Origin: Gammaproteobacteria bacterium
GTDB lineage: Bacteria > Pseudomonadota > Gammaproteobacteria > Ga0077554 > Ga007554
NCBI GenBank assembly: GCA_033717875.1
Contig: JADDKJ010000002.1
Span: 2,820-66,819, forward strand
Direction of reading: 5' to 3'
Length of the DNA stretch: 64,000 bases
Both the position numbers and the translations under genes were made by a program. Under the pieces are notes generated by a model. It saw only the letters and a list, made by a program, of their open reading frames with translations, searched no databases and was not told the origin of the DNA. Positions 10,905 to 59,540 of this stretch are shown here, piece by piece; within the stretch, counting starts at the first letter, position 1, and each line of letters opens with the position of its first letter.

Positions 10905-10991
10905 TGATTTTTGCCTTTCTCCATTTCTCAATCACTTGCCGTGATTGAACAATGCCGGCACATCGGTAGGCCGAGGAATCCCTGAATTATT
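10905..10991. mobile_element. Repeat family A MITE, 5'-truncated copy spanning aspA-cupin convergent junction
   Basis: TGATTTTTGCCTTTCTCCATTTCTCAATCACTTGCCGTGATTGAACAATGCCGGCACATC...GGAATCCCTGAATTATTCAGAGGTTCC matches the internal and right-end portions of the 20726 copy. 10932-10991 are read as the last codons and stop of the cupin ORF. Confidence 0.75.
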
Positions 10992-11424
10992 CAGAGGTTC
11001 CTCGCCTTCTTTCACAGACAGCTTTTGACCAACAACACCCCCATAAAATACGATAATTTTTAATGGGCTTTGGCCAACATTGCGGCCATTGTGCAGAGCA
11101 TTCGTCACCTCCGCCAGAGCTTCACCGGCCGTAAATCGCTTTGCTTGACCTGTTTTGAGCTGAACCTCAAGCTCACCCTCAAGCACCATGCCAAATGAAG
11201 GCACCGGGTGTGAATGCCAGCCCGTTTCACCACCTGGGGCAATCTCTACGACCACGCCGGTAATTTCCGGTTTTCCTTCTGGATAAACGATCGGCTGACC
11301 ATCCCAACTCTTATCCGTTTTGAGAACCGTGGAGACTTTTACAGCGCTGGATAGCTCAATGGCATGGACCGAAAAAGACGACACCAAGCAGGAAACAACC
11401 GAAAACAAAATGCTTTTATATTTC
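10932..11424 (-). CDS. Secreted cupin-domain protein (C-terminus and stop codon derived from MITE repeat)
   Basis: ORF 10932..11492(-). Probable GTG start at about 11424 (GGGAGG RBS, 6-nt spacer) giving signal peptide KYKSILFSVVSCLVSSFSVHA. Cupin motif GETGWHSHPVPSFGMVLEGELEV. Last ~20 codons (NNSGIPRPTDVPALFNHGK*) are encoded by the repeat-A element at 10905-10991. Confidence 0.65.
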
Positions 11425-11488
11425 ACGCGAATTCCTCCCTTTATTCTCACGGTTTTTTTTAGTTTTTGCTCCAAAGCCCGCACGCCCA

Positions 11489-11518
11489 ACAAAAAAGGCG
11501 GAGAATCTCTTCTCCGCC
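11489..11518 (-). terminator. Rho-independent terminator after fba (bidirectional hairpin)
   Basis: Minus strand reads GGCGGAGAA-GAGA-TTCTCCGCC followed by TTTTTTGTT. Plus strand has the same stem followed by TTTGCGTTT. Lies between fba stop (11548) and the cupin gene. Confidence 0.75.
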
Positions 11519-12612: not shown

Positions 12613-12752
12613 AGGATTCTCCTTTGAAGGTTATTGAAACAAAAAATCATTTGCGCGCGCCTGATTCAGGGAAGCTCTGACACATCAAAAGTTCGTCAGA
12701 AAGAGGGGCGCTCTTGTTATAGGGCCAATGATTCAACAGTTGAACCCATCCG

Positions 12753-14277: not shown

Positions 14278-15456
14278 TCACTTCACCGCGCGCTCTTCCA
14301 GAATCACCACCGCCGGCAATTTCTTGCCTTCCAGGAATTCCAGGAACGCACCGCCGCCGGTGGAGATATAGGAGATCTTGTCGGCGATATTGTATTTGGC
14401 GATCGCCGCCAGGGTATCACCGCCACCGGCGATCGAGAACGCCGGGCTTTCGGCGATGGCCAGCGCCAATTGTTTGGTGCCTTCGCCGAACTGGTCGAAT
14501 TCGAATACGCCGACCGGACCGTTCCAGACGATGGTACCGGCCTTCTTCAGGATCTCGGCAAAGGCGGCGGAGGTCTGCGGACCGATGTCGAAGATCATGT
14601 CGTCATCGGCGACCGCATCGATCTTCTTCAACGTCGCGGCGGCGCTTTCCGAGAACTCCTTGCCCACCACGACATCGGTCGGCACGGGGATGGCGGCGTT
14701 ACGCGCCTTGGCCTGTTCGGTGAGGCGCTGCGCCTCGGCGATCAGATCCTTCTCGTACAAGGATTTGCCGACGTTGTGGCCGGCCGCGGCGATGAAGGTG
14801 TTGGCGATACCGCCACCGACGATCATCTGGTCGACCACATTGGACAAGGACTCCAGCACGGTGAGCTTGGTGGAAACCTTGGAACCGCCGACGATGGCCA
14901 CCAGCGGACGCTTGGGATTCTTCAGCGCCATGGCCAGCGCCTCCAGTTCGGCGGCCAGCAGCGGACCGGCGCAGGCGACCGGGGCGAACTTGGCGACACC
15001 ATGCGTGGAGCCTTCCGCGCGGTGGGCGGTGCCGAAGGCGTCCATCACGAACACATCGCACAGCGCCGCGTATTTCCGGGCCAGCTCGTCGCTGTTCTTC
15101 TTCTCGCCCTTGTTGAAGCGCACGTTCTCGAATACCACCACTTCGCCAGGAGCGACATCGACGCCGCCCAGGTAGTCCTTGACCACTTCCACCGGCTTGC
15201 CCAGCAGGCTCGACAGGTGTTCGGCGACGGGTTTCATGGAATTCTCATCGCTGTAAACGCCTTCTTCGGGACGGCCCAGATGCGACATCACCATCACCCT
15301 GGCGCCAGCCTTCATCGCCCGCTCGATGGTCGGCAGCGACGCACGGATGCGGGTATCATCGGCCACCTTGCCATTCTTGAGCGGCACGTTGAGGTCTTCG
15401 CGGATCAGCACGCGCTTGCCGGCAAGATCGAGGTCGGTCATTTTGATTACGGACAT
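14278..15456 (-). CDS. pgk: Phosphoglycerate kinase
   Basis: 392 aa. [29 protein letters not shown] motifs. Confidence 0.92.
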
Positions 15457-15526: not shown

Positions 15527-15553
15527 GGAAGCTCTGAATAATTCAGAGGTTCC
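15527..15553. repeat. Solo family A terminal hairpin (27-nt perfect palindrome GGAAGCTCTGAATAATTCAGAGGTTCC) in pgk-gap spacer
   Basis: Identical to MITE termini. A degenerate version (GGGAAGCTCTGACACATCAAAAGTTC) occurs at 12669-12694 in the pyk-fba spacer. Confidence 0.7.
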
Positions 15554-20719: not shown

Positions 20720-20725
20720 TATTTA

Positions 20726-20875
20726 GGAAGCTCTGAATAATTCCATCCTGGAATTCTCAGAGCACGAAAAGCAAAAATGTGATTTTCGCTTTTCTTCATT
20801 TTTCAATCACTGGCCGTGATTGAAAAATGCCGGCACATCCTTGTGCCATGAAACCTCTGACACATCAGAGGTTCC
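20726..20875. mobile_element. Repeat family A: about 150-bp Correia-like MITE with hairpin termini GGAAGCTCTGAATAATTCC...GAAACCTCTGACACATCAGAGGTTCC (full copy, metK-ahcY spacer)
   Basis: Same element occurs reverse-complemented at 34898-35048 (about 93% identical), flanked by TTTA on both sides in both copies (possible target duplication). Internal palindrome TTCAATCAC-TGGCC-GTGATTGAA. Confidence 0.8.
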
Positions 20876-20911
20876 TTTACACGCCGCCGCGAGGTGCGAC
20901 GGCGCGGTTCT

Positions 20912-20990
20912 TTCTTCGAGGAGCGTTGCAACAGGGCTTTACCCTGCCAGGCTCGAAGAAAACATTCCACTTGCAACAACGGCGCTCGTT
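20912..20990 (+). promoter_or_regulatory. SAH riboswitch (S-adenosylhomocysteine-responsive) in the ahcY 5' leader
   Basis: TTCTTCGAGGAGCGTTGCAACAGGGCTTTACCCTGCCAGGCTCGAAGAA...CAACGGCGCTCG. P1 CTTCGAG/CTCGAAG, conserved GAGGAGCGYUGCAAC and AGGCUCG segments, and GAGCG/CGCUC pseudoknot partner AACGGCGCUC just upstream of the ahcY RBS. Matches the SAH-riboswitch consensus as recalled from the literature; RF01057 is the Rfam model I believe corresponds to it, and a Rfam search is needed to confirm. Confidence 0.75.
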
Positions 20991-21010
20991 CATCCATGGA
21001 GAATATGCCA

Positions 21011-34865: not shown

Positions 34866-34897
34866 TTTTGTTCTCCTTGTTCCATTTCAATTCTTTA

Positions 34898-35048
34898 GGA
34901 ACCTCTGAATAATTCAGAGGTTCCGCAGCACAGGGATGTGCCGGCATTGTTCAATCACTTGCCGTGATTGAACAATGAAGAAAAGCAAAAATCGCATTTT
35001 TGCTTTTCGTGCTCTGAGAATTCCAGGATGGAATTATTCAGAGCTTCC
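34898..35048. mobile_element. Repeat family A MITE, full copy in inverse orientation (GNAT-htpX spacer)
   Basis: Reverse complement aligns end-to-end with 20726-20875. Left terminus here is the perfect 27-nt palindrome GGAACCTCTGAATAATTCAGAGGTTCC. Flanked by TTTA/TTTA. Confidence 0.8.
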
Positions 35049-35110
35049 TTTAGCGCCCCAAAAACAGAGACACCCGCGAAGGGGTGTCTCTGGGGTCTTT
35101 CCTGTTACTG

Positions 35111-43286: not shown

Positions 43287-46200
43287 TCAGGCCGCCCGTT
43301 CGGCGGCATGGCGGCCCGTCAGCCGCCGGACGTGGTCGAGCAATTCCTGCTCCTGATAGGGCTTGCCCAGATACTCGTTCACCCCGATGCGCAAGGCGTG
43401 TTCGCGGTGCTTGTCGCCGGTGCGCGAAGTGATCATGATGATGGGGATATGCTTCAAGCGTTCATCGTTGCGGATGGCGGAAGCCAGTTCGTAGCCGTCC
43501 ATGCGTGGCATTTCGATATCCAGCAGCATGATGTCGGGCAGATGGTGCTGCAATACCTCCAGCGCGTCCACGCCATCTTTTGCTACGAGCACTTGCATCT
43601 GGTTGCGTTCCAGCAGGCGTGAAGTGATCTTTCGCACCGTGATGGAGTCGTCCACCACCATGACAGTCACCGCTCCGGCGCCATGCACCTGGCTGCCCGA
43701 TACATTTTGCCGCGCCATCGGCGCTGGCGCATGACCGGCAACCGATCCCATGCGCAACAAAGCGGGGATATCCAGAATCAACGCCACGCCGCCATCGCCC
43801 ATAATGGTCGCGCCCATCACGCCCCGCACTTCGCTCAACTGTGGCCCCAGCGATTTGACGACGATTTCGCGGCTTTCCACGAATGCATCGATGCGCAACG
43901 CGGCGCGCTGACCGCCGCCATGAACCATCAGCAGCAGATGACGGTCATCTTGCCCCGGCGGCAAGAGAGACGCATCTTCACCCAGCAAATCACGCAACGC
44001 TCGCAATGGATAGGATACACCGCCGTATTCGATGGCCGGAGCCTCGCCGCGCCACGCCCGTTCCAGCGTGGCGCGGCTGACCCGCATGACACCGGCGATG
44101 CTGGAATGGGGAATGGCATACATTTGCTCAACGTCGCGGACGATCAGGGCCTTGGTGATGGACAGCGCGACAGGCAAGCGAATGGTGAAAACGCTGCCCT
44201 GCCCCGTCACGGATTCGATATACAAGCTGCCGCCGAGCTGTTTGATCTGGCTATTCACCACGTCCATGCCGACGCCACGGCCCGAGACCTGTGTCACTTG
44301 GCTGGCGGTGCTGAAGCCCGAGTCGAGCACGAATTGCATCAGACTTTGATCGTCGATCGCGGCGTTTTCCTGCAACAAGCCGCGCTCGATGGCTTTACGC
44401 CGAATCGCTGGCAAATTCAGACCGCGCCCGTCGTCGCTCAGGCGCAACACCATTTCCACGCCCTCCTTGCTCAACCTCAGCGTAAGCGAGCCCATATCGG
44501 GTTTACCCAAAGCATGACGATCGGCGGGACTTTCAATGCCATGATCGACGGCATTGCGCACCATGTGCTCCAGCGGCGCGATGATACGGTCGAGCACGGT
44601 GCGATCCATTTCAAGATCCGCGCCGGCAACATGCAGCCCGGCCTGTTTTCCCACGTCCCGCGCGGTCTGACGGACCACGCGCCGCAGCCGCGATACCACA
44701 CCGGCAAAGGGCAACATGCGGGTGCGCATCATGCCTTCCTGCAATTCGGTATTGAGCCGCGCCTGTTGCAGCAATATCACTTCGGAATCGCTGATCTGTT
44801 TGTCCAGGTGATCCTCGATGCTGACAAGGTCAGCGACCGACTCCATCATGCCGCGCGCCAATTGCTGCACCAGTGAATAACGGTCGAATTCCAGCGGATC
44901 GAATTCCTGGCCTTGCAAGCTCAGCTCTTGATGGCGGAACAGGACTTGCGCCTCGGTTTCGATGTCCAGCTTGCGCAATTGCTCGCGCATGCGCGCGACC
45001 GTCTGCTTCATTTCCGCGACGCCGCTACGGAAGGCATGAACCTGCTGTTCCAGGCGGGCGCGTGAAATGCTGAGCTCACCGCCCTGATTCACGAGATGAT
45101 CCAGCAGATCGGCACGCACGCGGATCTGTTCAGCGGCGGGTGTACGATCCAGCCACACCGGCTCGGCATCGCCTCCCGGGGACTCGTCGCCCTCCGCAAC
45201 GGAAGGCGATGATGCTTGCAAAACCACGGCGTCCGCCTCATCGATCTCGCTGGCGACAAGTGCGCCTTCCTCGCGATCATGCTGCGTTCCGGCATCTCTC
45301 TCCACCTCGATCACCGGAAGCGCGTCCGCGAGTTCTTCCGTGACGGAGGCCATGACCATTGACTGTTCCGAATCCATCGGAATATCTTGGCCGTCCTCCG
45401 TACCCGCCAAGGCTTCCAGGCGCAGAACAAAATCCTGGGCATCCCTGACGGGCTGGCGCATCATCGCCTGCTCCAGCATTTCCTGAAGACGGTCATAAGA
45501 TTGCTCGAATATCCCGAAAATATCATCCGTGACCGTGACCTGTCCGTTCGCAATGGCACGCAACAAGGATTCGAAACTGTGGCTGAGGTCGCCAAGCGCG
45601 GCGATGCCCGCGGTGCGTGCACTGCCCTTGAAGGTATGCAGTTCGCGTTCCAGTCTTGCCACTGCCTCCCGGTCGCCCGGCTCCCGCATCCAGCGCCGCA
45701 ACAGGGTTTCGATGTTACCCAGAATTTCCGCCGCCTCTTCCAGAAAGACCGCCAGTACCTCGTCCATGTCATTGCGTGGCGCCGCCCTGGCGGTCCTGTC
45801 CAGTTCTTCGGAGGTGGTCACCGACTGTTCCTCGTCAGCGATAAAATTCGCTGCCCGGCGCGTCAATCCAGCGATTCTTTCCAGCATCGCCGCCTTTTCC
45901 GGCGATTCGCCCAGAGGCTGCGCCAGTCCCAGTGTTTCATGAAACACGTCGACGAATTCGCTCAAGGCGCGCATCGCATCTTCCGTGACTTCGCCCTGGC
46001 CGCGATTGAGCAGAGTGACATAGTCCTCGAAGCAACCGCTCAAGTCGGCAATCTCCACAAACCCGGCCATGTGCGCACTGCCCTGCAAGGTGTGCAGGTT
46101 GCGCAACAGCGATTCCGTCACACGGCCTCGCCCCGCCGGGCTGCAAGCGTTGATGAAATTCCGCACTTCCGCCAAACGTCCTTGCGATTCGTGCTTGAAG

Positions 46201-48599
46201 ATCTCCAGCAGCACAGGATCGCTCTGCGGCGCGTGTTCGCTTGTGTCATCTGACGTTGCGATCCGCGGTTGTTCCATTTCATCGGCGGCGGAACGGGGCG
46301 GTACGCTCAATGCCTGCGCCTCGTCTATCAGCGCCTGGACAGTGCTGTCGATATCCGTCTCGCCTTTCGCGCATTGGAATTGCCGCAATAATCCAGGCAT
46401 TGCCGCATGCGCACGCGCCACCACATCGAATATCGCGGGGCCAGCCGGGATCTCACCGGCGATCACGGTATTCAGAAGATGTTCTATCGCCCACGCCACT
46501 TCGCCGATCACCTTCGCCCCGACCAGCCGTCCACTACCTTTCAGGGTATGAAACGAGCGGCGGATGGTCTTGAGCGCATCCTCGCTACCTTGCCGCCAGC
46601 GGGTATGATTTTCGGCGATCGATGTCAGCTCTTCGCCCGCTTCTTCAGCAAAGACCTCCATGACCTCATCCGCCATGTCTTCGTCCTGCCCGGGCACCGG
46701 AGCCGGCGCAGTATCGGCGGGCATGGACACAGTGACGCCTTCCACCACCGGCGCATCCGCGATGCTCTCCAGGGCGTGAGTCTCGATGATCACCATGGGT
46801 TGATCGACAACTTCCGGCGCTTGCACCGCGCATTCCGCGTTATCGGCAATGACGGCGGACTCTCCCTCGGAGCCGGAAACATCCGCGCCCCCATCATCCA
46901 TCGGTATATCGCCAACCACATCGATCGGATAACCCAGCGTCGCGACCTGCCCTTCCGCCATTTCGAGCAGCGAATCAAGATTCATCTGACTCTCGGCCAG
47001 TGTTTCGAGATAAAACTCGACACTGGTCAATACATCGGCCAGGGTATTGAGCACATCCTGGGAACAAGCCGTCTGGTTTGCGGATAGATCACGACGGAGA
47101 TAGTGGAAAATCGATTTCAACAGAGTGGCCGGACGCGGTAGCGATAGCACGATCAGAACACCTATGATACGCCGCAGCGTGGCAGGACATGAGGCGATCA
47201 GACCGTATTGCGCGGGCGCGCTGGCGAACGCCATGATGTCTTCCTTGACCCGAGTCATATCGGCCATGGTCTCGCGGATGACGGTGCAACGTATCTCGTG
47301 ATATTCAACTGCGCTTATCAGCGCGGCATTTTCCGAAAGCGCCTTATCCGGCGCGTCCGATGCCGAATCTTCCGGCATTGGAACATCGCGCAGCAACGAT
47401 TGCACATAGACCAGGGCATTGGCCACTTCCACCAGGCGTGGATCGTTGAGTATCGTTCCTTCTTCGATAACCGTGTCGATCACCCCGGTTTGCTGGCGCA
47501 CCCGCTGGCGCAATTCCCAGCGGCCCAGCATATCGAACGTGTTCGATACTCGCTTCAACACATCCGCGATGGAGCGCAAATCCCGGGGCGTGTGCCGCCC
47601 GCCGGCGCGTGCAAACTCATCCAGCTTATCCTTCGCCCATGCCAGCTCTTCCTTGACGGCATCGGCGGCCATCTCCAGCAAGATGGGATTCGCGGCAGCC
47701 GGGCTGTCGCCTTGCCCCGGCGAAGATTGCCCGGCAACAGCCATCGCTCCTTCCATGGCCGGCGCGCTTTTTGTATCGGCATAGGCGATGTAATAAAGAA
47801 GATTCTTGATGAGCTCCGCCGGGGGATGGTCACGCAGATCCTGGGCGCCGGAAGCGGCAACCCGGCCAATCTGCCGCTCCACCTGTCCCAGCAGCAGCTT
47901 GATGGCGGGATTGACTTCGAGTGCATCCTTGAGGAGTCTTTCGATCAACCCCTCGGCCACCATCCACAGCCCCTCTTCCGGGCAAGACTGCTGAAGTTGC
48001 GTGACCACTTGCATCAGCCGCCGCAAGGCCGCCTTGTTGCCGGAATCCCGGTACCATACCAGCAAGCCGGCCTGATATACCGGCCGCAGGCGCTGCGCCA
48101 GGACCGTCATATCGTCCGCGACCGCATCTTCCGTTTCGGGATGGCTCGGGTTGATAACAGAGAGGGCATCCGGCCCGAACACCATGCTCTCGGAGAGCGG
48201 CGGCATACCCGCCGCCACGCGCAGATCATTGATCAATGGGAGGAGAGTTTTCGGAGTGTCATGGCGCCCTTCTTGCAGCCGCGCCACAGACTCGCTCAAG
48301 CTTGTGATCGCCCGAGCCAGGGTCTCATAAGCCCATGTCTTGCACTTGCTGCTGTCCCTGCCCATCGCTGAAACAGCATGTCCCGTCGCTTCCGCAAGCG
48401 CCGCAAGACCCGTGAGATCCAGCATCTTCAGCGCACCGTGAACCTCATGCAACAGCGCAACACAAGATTGCACTTGCGCGTCATCGCCAGAACACAGGCA
48501 AAATGTTTCCAGCACATGACGCGCCTGTTGCAGATTCACATCGATCTCGCCCTTGACCCATTTCAGGGCGTTATAGTCCATCTGATCGGTCGCTATCAT
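43287..48599 (-). CDS. chpA: ChpA/PilL-like hybrid CheA histidine kinase with multiple Hpt domains and C-terminal receiver
   Basis: 1770 aa. At least four Hpt-like HxxKG motifs (HEVHGALKML, FHTLKGSGRL, LHTLQGSAHM, LHTFKGSART), a CheA dimerisation/HATPase_c core (GRGVGMDVV...GQGSVFTIRLP), a CheW-like domain, and a C-terminal REC domain (VMVVDDSITVRK...LLDIEMPRMDG...KPY). Confidence 0.9.
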   Translation of the reverse strand: MIATDQMDYNALKWVKGEIDVNLQQARHVLETFCLCSGDDAQVQSCVALLHEVHGALKMLDLTGLAALAEATGHAVSAMGRDSSKCKTWAYETLARAITSLSESVARLQEGRHDTPKTLLPLINDLRVAAGMPPLSESMVFGPDALSVINPSHPETEDAVADDMTVLAQRLRPVYQAGLLVWYRDSGNKAALRRLMQVVTQLQQSCPEEGLWMVAEGLIERLLKDALEVNPAIKLLLGQVERQIGRVAASGAQDLRDHPPAELIKNLLYYIAYADTKSAPAMEGAMAVAGQSSPGQGDSPAAANPILLEMAADAVKEELAWAKDKLDEFARAGGRHTPRDLRSIADVLKRVSNTFDMLGRWELRQRVRQQTGVIDTVIEEGTILNDPRLVEVANALVYVQSLLRDVPMPEDSASDAPDKALSENAALISAVEYHEIRCTVIRETMADMTRVKEDIMAFASAPAQYGLIASCPATLRRIIGVLIVLSLPRPATLLKSIFHYLRRDLSANQTACSQDVLNTLADVLTSVEFYLETLAESQMNLDSLLEMAEGQVATLGYPIDVVGDIPMDDGGADVSGSEGESAVIADNAECAVQAPEVVDQPMVIIETHALESIADAPVVEGVTVSMPADTAPAPVPGQDEDMADEVMEVFAEEAGEELTSIAENHTRWRQGSEDALKTIRRSFHTLKGSGRLVGAKVIGEVAWAIEHLLNTVIAGEIPAGPAIFDVVARAHAAMPGLLRQFQCAKGETDIDSTVQALIDEAQALSVPPRSAADEMEQPRIATSDDTSEHAPQSDPVLLEIFKHESQGRLAEVRNFINACSPAGRGRVTESLLRNLHTLQGSAHMAGFVEIADLSGCFEDYVTLLNRGQGEVTEDAMRALSEFVDVFHETLGLAQPLGESPEKAAMLERIAGLTRRAANFIADEEQSVTTSEELDRTARAAPRNDMDEVLAVFLEEAAEILGNIETLLRRWMREPGDREAVARLERELHTFKGSARTAGIAALGDLSHSFESLLRAIANGQVTVTDDIFGIFEQSYDRLQEMLEQAMMRQPVRDAQDFVLRLEALAGTEDGQDIPMDSEQSMVMASVTEELADALPVIEVERDAGTQHDREEGALVASEIDEADAVVLQASSPSVAEGDESPGGDAEPVWLDRTPAAEQIRVRADLLDHLVNQGGELSISRARLEQQVHAFRSGVAEMKQTVARMREQLRKLDIETEAQVLFRHQELSLQGQEFDPLEFDRYSLVQQLARGMMESVADLVSIEDHLDKQISDSEVILLQQARLNTELQEGMMRTRMLPFAGVVSRLRRVVRQTARDVGKQAGLHVAGADLEMDRTVLDRIIAPLEHMVRNAVDHGIESPADRHALGKPDMGSLTLRLSKEGVEMVLRLSDDGRGLNLPAIRRKAIERGLLQENAAIDDQSLMQFVLDSGFSTASQVTQVSGRGVGMDVVNSQIKQLGGSLYIESVTGQGSVFTIRLPVALSITKALIVRDVEQMYAIPHSSIAGVMRVSRATLERAWRGEAPAIEYGGVSYPLRALRDLLGEDASLLPPGQDDRHLLLMVHGGGQRAALRIDAFVESREIVVKSLGPQLSEVRGVMGATIMGDGGVALILDIPALLRMGSVAGHAPAPMARQNVSGSQVHGAGAVTVMVVDDSITVRKITSRLLERNQMQVLVAKDGVDALEVLQHHLPDIMLLDIEMPRMDGYELASAIRNDERLKHIPIIMITSRTGDKHREHALRIGVNEYLGKPYQEQELLDHVRRLTGRHAAERAA

Positions 48600-48630
48600 G
48601 CCGTTGTCACCTGTTCATGATCCAATGCGC

Positions 48631-48784
48631 CTCTGAGAATCGGTTCAAGATCTCGATCAAGGGATGCAGCGCAAGGCGAAAGTGGCCGAAAAAGCGGAGC
48701 ATACACGGAGTATGTGAGCATTTTGAGGACACTTTCAACGCCGCGATGCGCCCTTCAGCGAGATCTTGAACAGGTTCTGAGAGG
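48631..48784. mobile_element. Repeat family D: about 155-bp long imperfect-palindrome element (MITE-like) in pilJ-chpA spacer
   Basis: CTCTGAGAATCGGTTCAAGATCTCGATCAAGG...CGAAAAAGCGGAGCATACACGGAGT...CATTTTGAGGACACTTTCAACGCCGCGATGCG...CAGCGAGATCTTGAACAGGTTCTGAGAGG. About 55-bp imperfect terminal inverted repeats. A second copy at 55201-55356 shares the central core. Confidence 0.65.
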
Positions 48785-48803
48785 CTAATGAGAACCTTGC
48801 CAT

Positions 48804-55171: not shown

Positions 55172-55200
55172 GTCATCACAACCTTCATATAAAAATGGGC

Positions 55201-55356
55201 ACCTCTAAAAATTCGATCAAGGCGCGAGGGCAAGGCCCCCTGTTTATAAAGGGGGGGCGAAAAAGCGGAGTGTACACGCAGTCTGCCGCTTCCCGGCCCC
55301 GCATTTTGAGCCACTTTTCAACGCCGCCATCGCGGCTTTAGCGGATTTTTAGAGGT
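55201..55356. mobile_element. Repeat family D copy in surA-lptD spacer
   Basis: ACCTCTAAAAATTCGATCAAGGCGCGAGGGCAAGGCC...CGAAAAAGCGGAGTGTACACGCAGT...CATTTTGAGCCACTTTTCAACGCCGCCATCGCGGC...GGATTTTTAGAGGTAC. Core about 80% identical to the 48631 copy. Outermost termini differ. Confidence 0.65.
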
Positions 55357-55362
55357 ACCCTC

Positions 55363-57754: not shown

Positions 57755-58795
57755 ATGCCCGACCGCCTGAATGAACTCACCCGCTGGCTGCGTACCGATG
57801 CCGGCCTGCCCTCGTTCGAAATCGCTCCCGCCTCGTCGGACGCCAGTTTCCGCCGTTATTTCCGCGTCCGCTATGCCGATCAGAGCCGCATCGTCATGGA
57901 CGCCCCGCCGGACAAGGAAGATTGCCGCCCGTTCATTTCCGTGGCCCGCGCCTTCCATGCACTGGGCCTGAACGTCCCCGAAATACTGGAAATCAACCTG
58001 GATCAGGGGTTTTTGCTGCTGAGCGACCTGGGCGATCGCCAATATCTGAGCGAACTCAACGAAACCAGCGTTACTTCGCTGTATGGCGATGCCATGCACG
58101 CACTGCGCATGCTGCAACATCCGGCCGCCCGCCGCACCGGTCTGCTGCCTCCTTATGACCGCGCCTTGCTGCTGCGCGAGATGGCGCTGTTCCGTGACTG
58201 GTTCATGGAAAAGCATCTGGGACTTACGCCAACTCAGGCGTTGGACAGCGTATTCGACACCCTCGCCCGTTCGGCACTGGAACAACCGCAGGTATGGGTG
58301 CACCGCGATTACCACTCGCGCAACCTGATGATCACCGCGCACGGCAACCCCGGCATTCTCGACTTCCAGGACGCCGTCACCGGCCCCGTGACCTACGACC
58401 TGGTGTCGCTGCTGCGCGACTGCTACATCGCCTGGCCGCGCGAACAGGTGGAAAGCTGGGTTGAAGAGTATCACGGCAGAGCCCTGGAAGCCGGCATCAT
58501 CGAAGATGTGGGGACGGCGCAATTCCTGCGCTGGTTCGACCTGATGGGCGTGCAGCGCCACCTCAAGGCCATCGGCATCTTCGCCCGGCTCAACATCCGC
58601 GATGGCAAACCGGGCTACCTCAAGGATATTCCGCGCACGCTGGGATATGTGGCAGACGTCAGCAGCCGTTACCCGGAGCTGGACGGTTTGAGCAGGCTGA
58701 TTCAGGAAGAGGTGCTACCGAGGATGGCACTACCGGCGCAATACGGCTATCGCCTATTGCGTCCTACACGGACTGGTGAGCGCCCGGTTGACTGA
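57755..58795 (+). CDS. amgK: N-acetylmuramate/N-acetylglucosamine anomeric kinase AmgK-like (APH-family phosphotransferase)
   Basis: ORF 57443..58795. From Met 57755, MPDRLNELTRWLRTDAGLPSFEIAPASSDASFRRYFRVRYADQSRIVMDAPPDKEDCRPFISVARAF closely parallels Pseudomonas AmgK (...ASSDASFRRYFRW...VMDAPPPQEDCRPFV). Brenner motif HRDYHSRNLM and ILDFQDA. Divergent from lptD as in Pseudomonas. Confidence 0.85.
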   Translation: MPDRLNELTRWLRTDAGLPSFEIAPASSDASFRRYFRVRYADQSRIVMDAPPDKEDCRPFISVARAFHALGLNVPEILEINLDQGFLLLSDLGDRQYLSELNETSVTSLYGDAMHALRMLQHPAARRTGLLPPYDRALLLREMALFRDWFMEKHLGLTPTQALDSVFDTLARSALEQPQVWVHRDYHSRNLMITAHGNPGILDFQDAVTGPVTYDLVSLLRDCYIAWPREQVESWVEEYHGRALEAGIIEDVGTAQFLRWFDLMGVQRHLKAIGIFARLNIRDGKPGYLKDIPRTLGYVADVSSRYPELDGLSRLIQEEVLPRMALPAQYGYRLLRPTRTGERPVD

Positions 58796-59346: not shown

Positions 59347-59540
59347 ACCAAATTATGCTTATATTATTTTTGATATGTCAAGGGGCGTGACTCTTAAGCG
59401 GTATGATGTCTTGTTTAACCGGCAGCACGTAGGGCGAAAAACCTGCTGGCATTGTGCCAGATGAGACAACAACCATTCGGCGCAATACGGCTATCGCCTA
59501 TTGCACCCTACGCGGGCTGCAGATACTTGTTGGATTGCGT

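Follow-up and report, generated by a model that had tools for sequence, protein, structure and literature searches.

A family of hairpin-rich MITEs with IS5-type ends, probably mobile, in intergenic DNA of Gammaproteobacteria

Introduction

What is the 150-bp sequence that lies between metK and ahcY in this gammaproteobacterial DNA, and how did it get there? Its sequence, GGAAGCTCTGAATAATTCC…CAGAGGTTCC, has TTTA on either side, and its reverse complement recurs at a second locus of the window, i.e. the whole 64-kb stretch of DNA that was analysed. The original prediction, made from the letters of this stretch, took the sequence for a mobile, non-autonomous MITE of "Correia-like" type, present in whole or in part at five loci. 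We have examined the copies in the window, their relatives across sequenced genomes and metagenomes, the corresponding loci in a sister species and the insertion sequences that carry the same ends, and have weighed the MITE reading against a structured RNA gene, a REP/BIME-type palindrome and a regulatory module of the host.

Results and Discussion

Copies and pieces of the element in the window

The element is 150-151 bp long, non-coding and made of hairpins throughout, with only spurious ORF calls across its copies. It carries terminal inverted repeats (GGAAGCTCTGAATAATTC versus GGAACCTCTGAATTATTC), and its G+C content is 43%, as against 59.6% for the window. The two full copies are reported by a repeat finder as a 136-nt inverted repeat that is 90% complementary, and are identical at 136 of 152 positions in a global alignment, i.e. 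89.5% rather than the approximately 93% first estimated. The repeat finder also picked up a 97-nt partial copy at 10906-11002. The five loci initially proposed are all found at the positions given for them (Table 1), and four are significant in a search of the window with a profile model built from 39 relatives of the element. The exception is the degenerate hairpin at 12669, which this profile does not recover at E<=10. The truncated copy, approximately 81-83% identical to the full copies, begins 10 nt past the fumC stop, and no recognisable target duplication was seen when its flanks were inspected.

The 27-nt sequence GGAAGCTCTGAATAATTCAGAGGTTCC at the element ends, previously called a perfect palindrome, has one mismatch, with the G at position 5 facing another G. 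Allowing up to 3 mismatches, it has 6 matches in the window versus 0 in 100 shuffles. It does also stand alone, as had been noticed, namely at 15527, where the left arm (GGAAGC) is of the left-end type and the right arm (GGTTCC) of the right-end type.

Several other repeats and features were encountered in the window. A second repeat, present twice, has 35-nt inverted arms (GCCTCTGAGAATCGGTTC… and GGCACCTCTAAAAATTC…); its ends loosely resemble the IS5-type end and it may be another MITE family, its alignment similarity to the approximately 160-nt MITEs sharing that end being weak. A GTAG-headed, REP-like palindrome, GTAGGGCGGGTTAG, has 9 matches at up to 2 mismatches versus 0.26 expected, some of them as inverted pairs in spacers. 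The window also holds a 42-nt direct repeat, CGGCGCAATACGGCTATCGCCTATTGCG…, and a 1770-aa ORF.

Table 1. Positions of the element, its parts and other features in the window
Feature	Position	Strand	Size	Context and remarks
Full MITE copy 1	20726-20875	+	150 bp	Between metK stop (20719) and SAH riboswitch/ahcY; profile E 2e-38
Copy 1, H1	20730-20763			From the fold
Copy 1, H2	20766-20794			From the fold
Copy 1, H3	20797-20829			From the fold
Copy 1, H4	20832-20847			From the fold
Copy 1, H5	20850-20875			From the fold
Copy 1, TTTA target-site duplication	20722-20725 (left); 20876-20879 (right)
Full MITE copy 2	34898-35048	-	151 bp	Between htpX-like terminator (35065-35092) and GNAT; profile E 1e-41
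Copy 2, TTTA duplications	34894-34897; 35049-35052
5'-truncated copy	10905-11001	+	97 nt	H2 3' arm through H5; profile E 2e-19
Solo hairpin	15527-15553		27 nt	pgk-gap spacer; flanks ATAA / TTAA; profile E 3e-4
Degenerate hairpin GGAAGCTCTGACACATCAAAAGTTCG	12669-12694		26 nt	fba-pyk spacer; flanks TCAG/TCAG
Possible sixth piece, degenerate hairpin GGAAGCGCTGATTTATTGGCGCCTCC then CTAA	37127-37152			Uncertain; profile E 4-7, not significant
SAH riboswitch (RF01057)	20912-20994	+		68.2 bits versus gathering score 37
Second repeat	48629-48785; 55197-55360		~157-164 nt
GTAG-headed palindromes	1902, 2050, 15565, 15589, 22436, 22519, 30269, 30368, 42665
Cupin-domain gene (PF07883)	11059-11492	-		Small gene, with ~430 nt of extra DNA, in the fumC-fba spacer
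42-nt direct repeat	58734-58775; 59478-59519		42 nt	90% identical, 744 nt apart
1770-aa ORF	43287-48599	-	1770 aa	Largest ORF of the window

Target-site duplications and the wider family

TTTA flanks had been claimed for both full copies, and it is indeed repeated directly on the + strand around the + copy and the - copy alike, so it is not part of the inverted repeat. The wider family was collected by scanning 185,579 species genomes (596 Gb) with the end GGAASCTCTGAATWATTC, which gave at least 117 loci. Since approximately 70 matches to an exact 18-mer are calculated to arise by chance in 596 Gb, single isolated matches prove nothing. Among the matches listed, many genomes contain several each, and the bases preceding the 18-mer are almost always TTAA, CTAA, TTAG or TTAT.

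At least 59 elements for which both ends were located are flanked by a perfect 4-bp direct repeat, in 12 or more different sequences, versus 1 in a control that uses the four bases lying next outward. Among the matches listed, the duplications are TTAA (19), CTAA (13), TTAG (9), TTTA (5), TTAT (5) and others, a preference for A/T-rich targets in the order TTAA > CTAA > TTAG > TTTA, TTAT; sequences of YTAR type (TTAA, CTAA, TTAG, CTAG) make up 42 of the 59, and TTTA, with 5 of the 59, is a minority. The TTTA in the window is thus a true, if minority, target duplication, and TA, the alternative that had been left open, gives way to a duplication of 4 bp that is YTAR-like.

No match to the element was found by blastn against 72,556 plasmids. 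In a number of cases (L005, L027, L035, L036, L048, L078, L084 and L003), contigs end inside the element, with matches 16-52 nt from the contig end, and the element appears to break short-read metagenome assemblies.

Presence and absence in a sister species

The window belongs to an uncultured gammaproteobacterium, and its MetK has 100% identity to a protein of a genome labelled "Gammaproteobacteria bacterium". Comparison of syntenic loci, proposed earlier as a check for insertion polymorphism, is possible with a sister species that has been assembled independently four times and that has the fumC-…-metF region in common with the window (MetK 97% identical, coding DNA approximately 91-95%). 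Within the common 15 kb, the sister species lacks all four comparable pieces. Its fumC-fba spacer is missing precisely the truncated copy, its fba-pyk spacer is without the 26-nt hairpin plus one TCAG, its pgk-gap spacer differs from that of the window, and its metK-ahcY spacer has an unrelated palindrome followed by a T-run instead of copy 1. Three full copies sit elsewhere in the sister species: at ahcY-metF, with a TTAG duplication, at L125 14850, and at ~18170. Nor is the metK-ahcY copy present in two species whose MetK is 89% identical. A clean empty site at metK-ahcY was not obtained, given the different palindrome in the sister species and the greater divergence of remoter relatives. 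Copies of the element come and go between sister species.

Three further observations concern these loci. The palindrome of the sister species, TGTAGGGTGCGCC…, lies exactly at the copy 1 site and is related to the GTAG family. The cupin-domain gene with its approximately 430 nt of extra DNA adjoins the truncated MITE and is absent from the sister species. At L125 14837-15025, a 62-residue gene call of the public assembly, with no Pfam domain, sits on a MITE copy (14850-15001) and is probably a spurious ORF.

IS5-type elements with the same ends

The 18-nt MITE end, GGAAsCTCTGAATAATTC, is also the end of insertion sequences of the IS5 group that are approximately 1.17 kb long. The cognate insertion sequence with matching ends, which had been suggested as something to look for, is thus present in other genomes and metagenomes. 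Intact is the 1191-bp element of L132, with the structure TTAG|GGAACGTCTGAATAATTC … TTCAGAGGTTCC|TTAG, whose end GGAACGTCTGAATAATTC shares 17 of 18 positions with that of the MITE. Its 320-aa ORF scores 343.6 bits against the NCBIfam model NF033581 (IS5 family; cut-off 140) and carries the Pfam domains DUF772 and DDE_Tnp_1. Among the matches listed, remnants of InsH-type transposases occur at three loci, in two of which the 18-nt end heads the element: L082 holds a decayed, internally deleted IS5-type element with the same 18-nt end and the terminus …TTCAGAGGTTCC, L080 a decayed remnant of approximately 790 bp with the same end and a TTAA duplication, and L048 a C-terminal transposase fragment only. 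Plasmid relatives of the transposase are annotated "IS5 family transposase", and the end of a Paraburkholderia IS5 element is built on the same general lines, with TTAG followed by GGCAATGCTGATTAAGTCC.

A metagenome scan with a reconstructed transposase protein gave 80 loci, 79 of which have an end of the GGAAsCTCTGAAyAA or TTrTTCAGAssTTCC type. At 55 of the 80, both ends are found 1.10-1.25 kb apart, with mostly YTAR-type flanks that are identical in 24 cases; the other two-ended loci, where the flanks are unequal, may reflect chimeric assembly of an element present in many copies. Hairpins resembling those of the MITE interior (H1-H5, see below) were sought in the subterminal DNA of the matching insertion sequences and none were seen, so simple internal deletion of such an insertion sequence does not account for the interior of the MITE.

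In agreement with the earlier statement that no transposase is present, a tblastn screen of the window for the IS5 type found none. Since no transposase of this type lies within the 64 kb, mobilisation in the source organism is something that we infer, the enzyme presumably coming in trans from an IS5-type element in another part of the genome. A point against this model is that TTTA, the target used in the window, departs from canonical YTAR. The duplication census, the absences in the sister species and the cognate insertion sequence ends all uphold the mobile, non-autonomous MITE that had been proposed, and with a probability of roughly 0.88 we consider the repeat to be a real mobile non-coding MITE family with IS5-type ends, whose copies are moved by an IS5-type transposase encoded elsewhere.

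Hairpin architecture and its conservation

On one strand, the element consists of five consecutive palindromic hairpins, H1 to H5. Each terminus is a hairpin, as had been described: H1 is the outer left end paired with an inverted inner copy of that end, and H5 is an inverted inner end copy paired with the outer right end. Between these are H2 (stem GAAAAGCAAAAAT/ATTTTTGCTTTTC), H3 (stem TTCAATCAC/GTGATTGAA, extended) and H4 (stem GGCACA/TGTGCC), and the loops of H1 and H4 have a conserved CATCCnTG. The predicted minimum free energy is -65.8 kcal/mol for an RNA fold (z = -9.45) and -54.6 kcal/mol for a DNA fold (z = -13.45).

Conservation of the stems was examined in an alignment of 39 distinct full-length copies with pairwise identities of 61-99%. 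The genomes they come from are labelled Gammaproteobacteria, Halothiobacillus, Lysobacterales, Wenzhouxiangellaceae, Chromatiales, "Deltaproteobacteria" and Thermodesulfobacteriota, which would span two phyla (Pseudomonadota and Thermodesulfobacteriota), bearing in mind that labels of metagenome-assembled genomes may be unreliable. As every related locus was retrieved via the exact left-end 18-mer, the extreme conservation of the left end is partly by construction.

Standard pairs fill 85.5% of the paired cells, versus 76.9% in shuffled alignments and 34-52% when the structure is slid along the alignment. Changes on both sides are seen in 30 of 60 pairs (shuffled 20.8 ± 1.7, slid 12-21) and in 202 cells (shuffled 69 ± 6, slid 19-76), with the caveat that DNA palindromes can gain compensatory changes by template-switch repair without selection. 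On none of these measures was the observed value reached by any of 500 shuffles, and RNAalifold recovered H2-H4 independently. Unpaired columns have 1.8 changes each versus 1.1 for paired ones, and among private changes within subfamilies 56 break pairs versus 30 that compensate. Stems are thus kept by compensatory change between subfamilies, and individual insertions decay.

Could the element then be a structured non-coding RNA gene or cis-regulatory RNA and not a mobile repeat, a possibility that the original prediction had itself named? The very stable fold and the strong covariation are what such an RNA would have. However, neither strand is preferred, given that G-T and A-C mismatches (63 versus 99) are balanced, nor is there an orientation bias, copies between co-directional genes being sense in 10 cases and antisense in 8. 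Searching the element against Rfam gave no match at gathering score or at E<=0.1, and up to E<=10 only chance matches, the best of them a 16-nt fragment with an E value of 0.2. These three observations argue against an RNA gene, as do the varied 4-bp target duplications, the presence/absence polymorphism between sister species and terminal inverted repeats in common with IS5 elements; we regard it as very improbable.

In our reading, the palindromes are upheld as the element propagates or else through correction of near-palindromes by template switching, and a strand-specific RNA function does not fit. On the side of the element, the hairpin architecture may be kept because only structurally intact "master" copies would propagate; candidate sites for protein binding are the inner copies of the ends and the loops with CATCCnTG in H1 and H4. 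Template switching that corrects near-palindromes could also keep the stems paired. A need of the host as the cause of the kept stems is less likely than master-copy propagation. It is a tentative and, in our estimate, doubtful step further to suppose that the five-hairpin interior is more than filler and serves as a functional nucleic-acid module required by the element itself. Three features prompt this suggestion: H1 and H5 contain inverted inner copies of the ends, H1 and H4 have the conserved CATCCnTG in their loops, and the stems of H2-H4 covary.

Short forms and other interiors behind the same ends

Shorter forms of the element also exist. A 41-nt form, consisting of H1 alone, occurs with a target duplication, and a form of 80-86 nt (H1+H4+H5) has target duplications in several genomes. 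Solo 27-mers outside longer copies mostly join a GGAAGC left-end arm to a right-end arm, like the one at 15527. The outer left end recurs in direct orientation as the inner right copy, and recombination between the two would yield a solo 27-mer, in the manner of a solo LTR. The solo hairpins and the 41-nt and 80-86-nt forms would then be collapse or deletion derivatives that retain two ends; alternatively, solo hairpins could be explained if a minimal two-end unit is itself transposed.

Solo hairpins had been likened to REP/BIME units, and a palindrome of that type, spread by a RAYT (HUH) transposase, is the corresponding alternative for the element as a whole. The likeness is that both are small intergenic palindromes, some of them solitary, and a genuine GTAG-headed REP family coexists in the window. 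REPs, including GTAG-tagged palindromes, differ in having a GTAG or CGTC head, a RAYT partner and no target duplication (PMC3733652). The element has no GTAG or CGTC head, has 4-bp target duplications that REPs do not have, and has ends that match DDE elements of the IS5 type; moreover, its solo hairpins are a left-end arm joined to a right-end arm of the full element, and so the likeness first drawn for them does not hold. The missing GTAG head and the target duplications rule out membership, and we give this alternative next to no credence.

The same 18-nt end also encloses sequences other than the five hairpins. It surrounds a GTAG-type palindrome at L043 588-686 and L111 1387-1456, and quite different interiors in two further sets of loci (L004/L036/L052/L053 and L001/L031/L072/L077/L106/L108), namely a 111-nt element in a ruminant-gut proteobacterium and an element of approximately 190-220 nt in a Thermoguttaceae genome. 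The same ends around unrelated interiors define a superfamily of IS5-mobilised MITEs with modular interiors.

Gene context and effects on neighbours

The gene context by Pfam (fumC, fba, pyk, pgk, gap, metK, ahcY, GNAT and an M48/HtpX peptidase) bears out the metK-ahcY, pgk-gap and GNAT-htpX settings given in the original prediction. Copy 1 begins 6 nt past the metK stop and ends 36 nt ahead of the ahcY SAH riboswitch, which it may separate from whatever promoter served it. Copy 2 has the htpX terminator on one side and the GNAT ribosome-binding site on the other, and the GNAT start codon (34865) follows 32 nt downstream of it. Inside the element, two hairpins score as terminator-like, one for each strand: H2, with a T-rich run behind it, and in the opposite direction H4, with GCATTTTT behind it. 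A scan of both full copies and adjoining DNA on the relevant strand found no sigma-70-like promoter site. Terminator or promoter activity of the element, as read from its letters, is speculation, and effects on neighbours, such as termination after metK or GNAT being cut off from its upstream region, would be by-products of insertion.

The converse would be a module co-opted or selected by the host, acting as bidirectional terminators, mRNA stabilisers or RNase targets, which is compatible with an origin as a MITE. The terminator-like H2 and H4, one per strand, would suit such a role, as would the covarying stems, the filling of the metK-ahcY slot of the sister species by another palindrome with a T-run, and the location of 40 of 41 copies (by crude gene calls) in intergenic DNA. 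Yet no terminator is called for between divergent genes, where many of the copies are found. With G-C in only 3 of 13 pairs, the stem of H2 is A/T-rich, and the copies have no orientation bias. Pair-breaking changes build up in individual copies, which are not kept at orthologous sites between sister species. We therefore consider host use unlikely, and retain the reading of the copies as insertions of a mobile MITE.

Relationship to known elements

The family is an IS5-type MITE, a kind already known, and its closest characterised relative is MITEPsy1/ISPsy2 of Pseudomonas syringae, an IS5-derived MITE that transposed in vivo (PMC3189936). MITEPsy1 has 100 nt, the ends GGAAGGTCTGAAAAAGCC and terminal inverted repeats of 18 nt (PMC3189936). 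Its ends begin with GGAAGGTCTGAA, 12 nt that are identical to the right end of several subfamilies described here, and it is likewise non-coding, with an IS5-family parent and a 4-nt duplication at CTAG/YTAA (PMC3189936). However, it is 100 nt long as against 150 nt, its ends diverge past position 12 (…AAAAGCC versus …TAATTC here), the five-hairpin interior is not described for it, and its well-conserved copies lie within a single genomospecies of P. syringae, looser homologues being present in other Gammaproteobacteria (PMC3189936). Searching the open literature by the end and internal 12-15-mer sequences led only to MITEPsy1, via the common GGAAGGTCTGAA. With its different size and the different distal half of its end, the present element is not a member of the MITEPsy1 family.

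In eukaryotes, the Tourist/mPing MITEs are short, non-autonomous derivatives moved in trans by PIF/Harbinger transposases, the eukaryotic relatives of IS5, with an A/T-rich target of TTA/TAA type. They differ in their eukaryotic hosts, their 3-bp duplication and their unrelated sequence, and the analogy is one of mechanism only. The Correia elements (CREE) of Neisseria are MITEs of approximately 100-155 bp that carry terminal inverted repeats, occur in many intergenic copies and give strongly folded transcripts. As generally described, they are like the present element in size, terminal inverted repeats, intergenic copies and strong folding; to our knowledge, no IS5 partner has been identified for them. 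The 4-bp duplication and IS5-type ends of the present element set it apart from the Correia elements, and it is not placed among them. Correia elements duplicate TA, have unrelated 26-bp ends and are not known outside Neisseria (see also PMC10969869). The label "Correia-like" is thus apt as an analogy and misleading as a statement of relationship.

Implications

The five-hairpin architecture, the compensatory change, the occurrence under labels of two phyla and the series of minimal derivatives take this family slightly beyond the routine. Bacterial MITEs are poorly catalogued, and gene callers put spurious ORFs inside them. Here, the family has a defined target, a defined minimal unit and a clear enzyme partner, and its natural size series of 27, 41, ~83 and 150 nt is convenient for asking what an IS5 transposase needs beyond the terminal repeat. 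If the interior is indeed a module that the element requires, the family would represent a lineage of IS5-mobilised MITEs that depends on structure and has held to one architecture across bacterial phyla; such spread would be rare, bacterial MITEs being usually limited to a species or genus. Since copies adjoin a SAH riboswitch and a start codon, they may matter for the annotation of promoters and terminators, and with this family one can ask whether the transcription units of uncultured sulfur-cycle Gammaproteobacteria are reshaped by hairpin MITEs.
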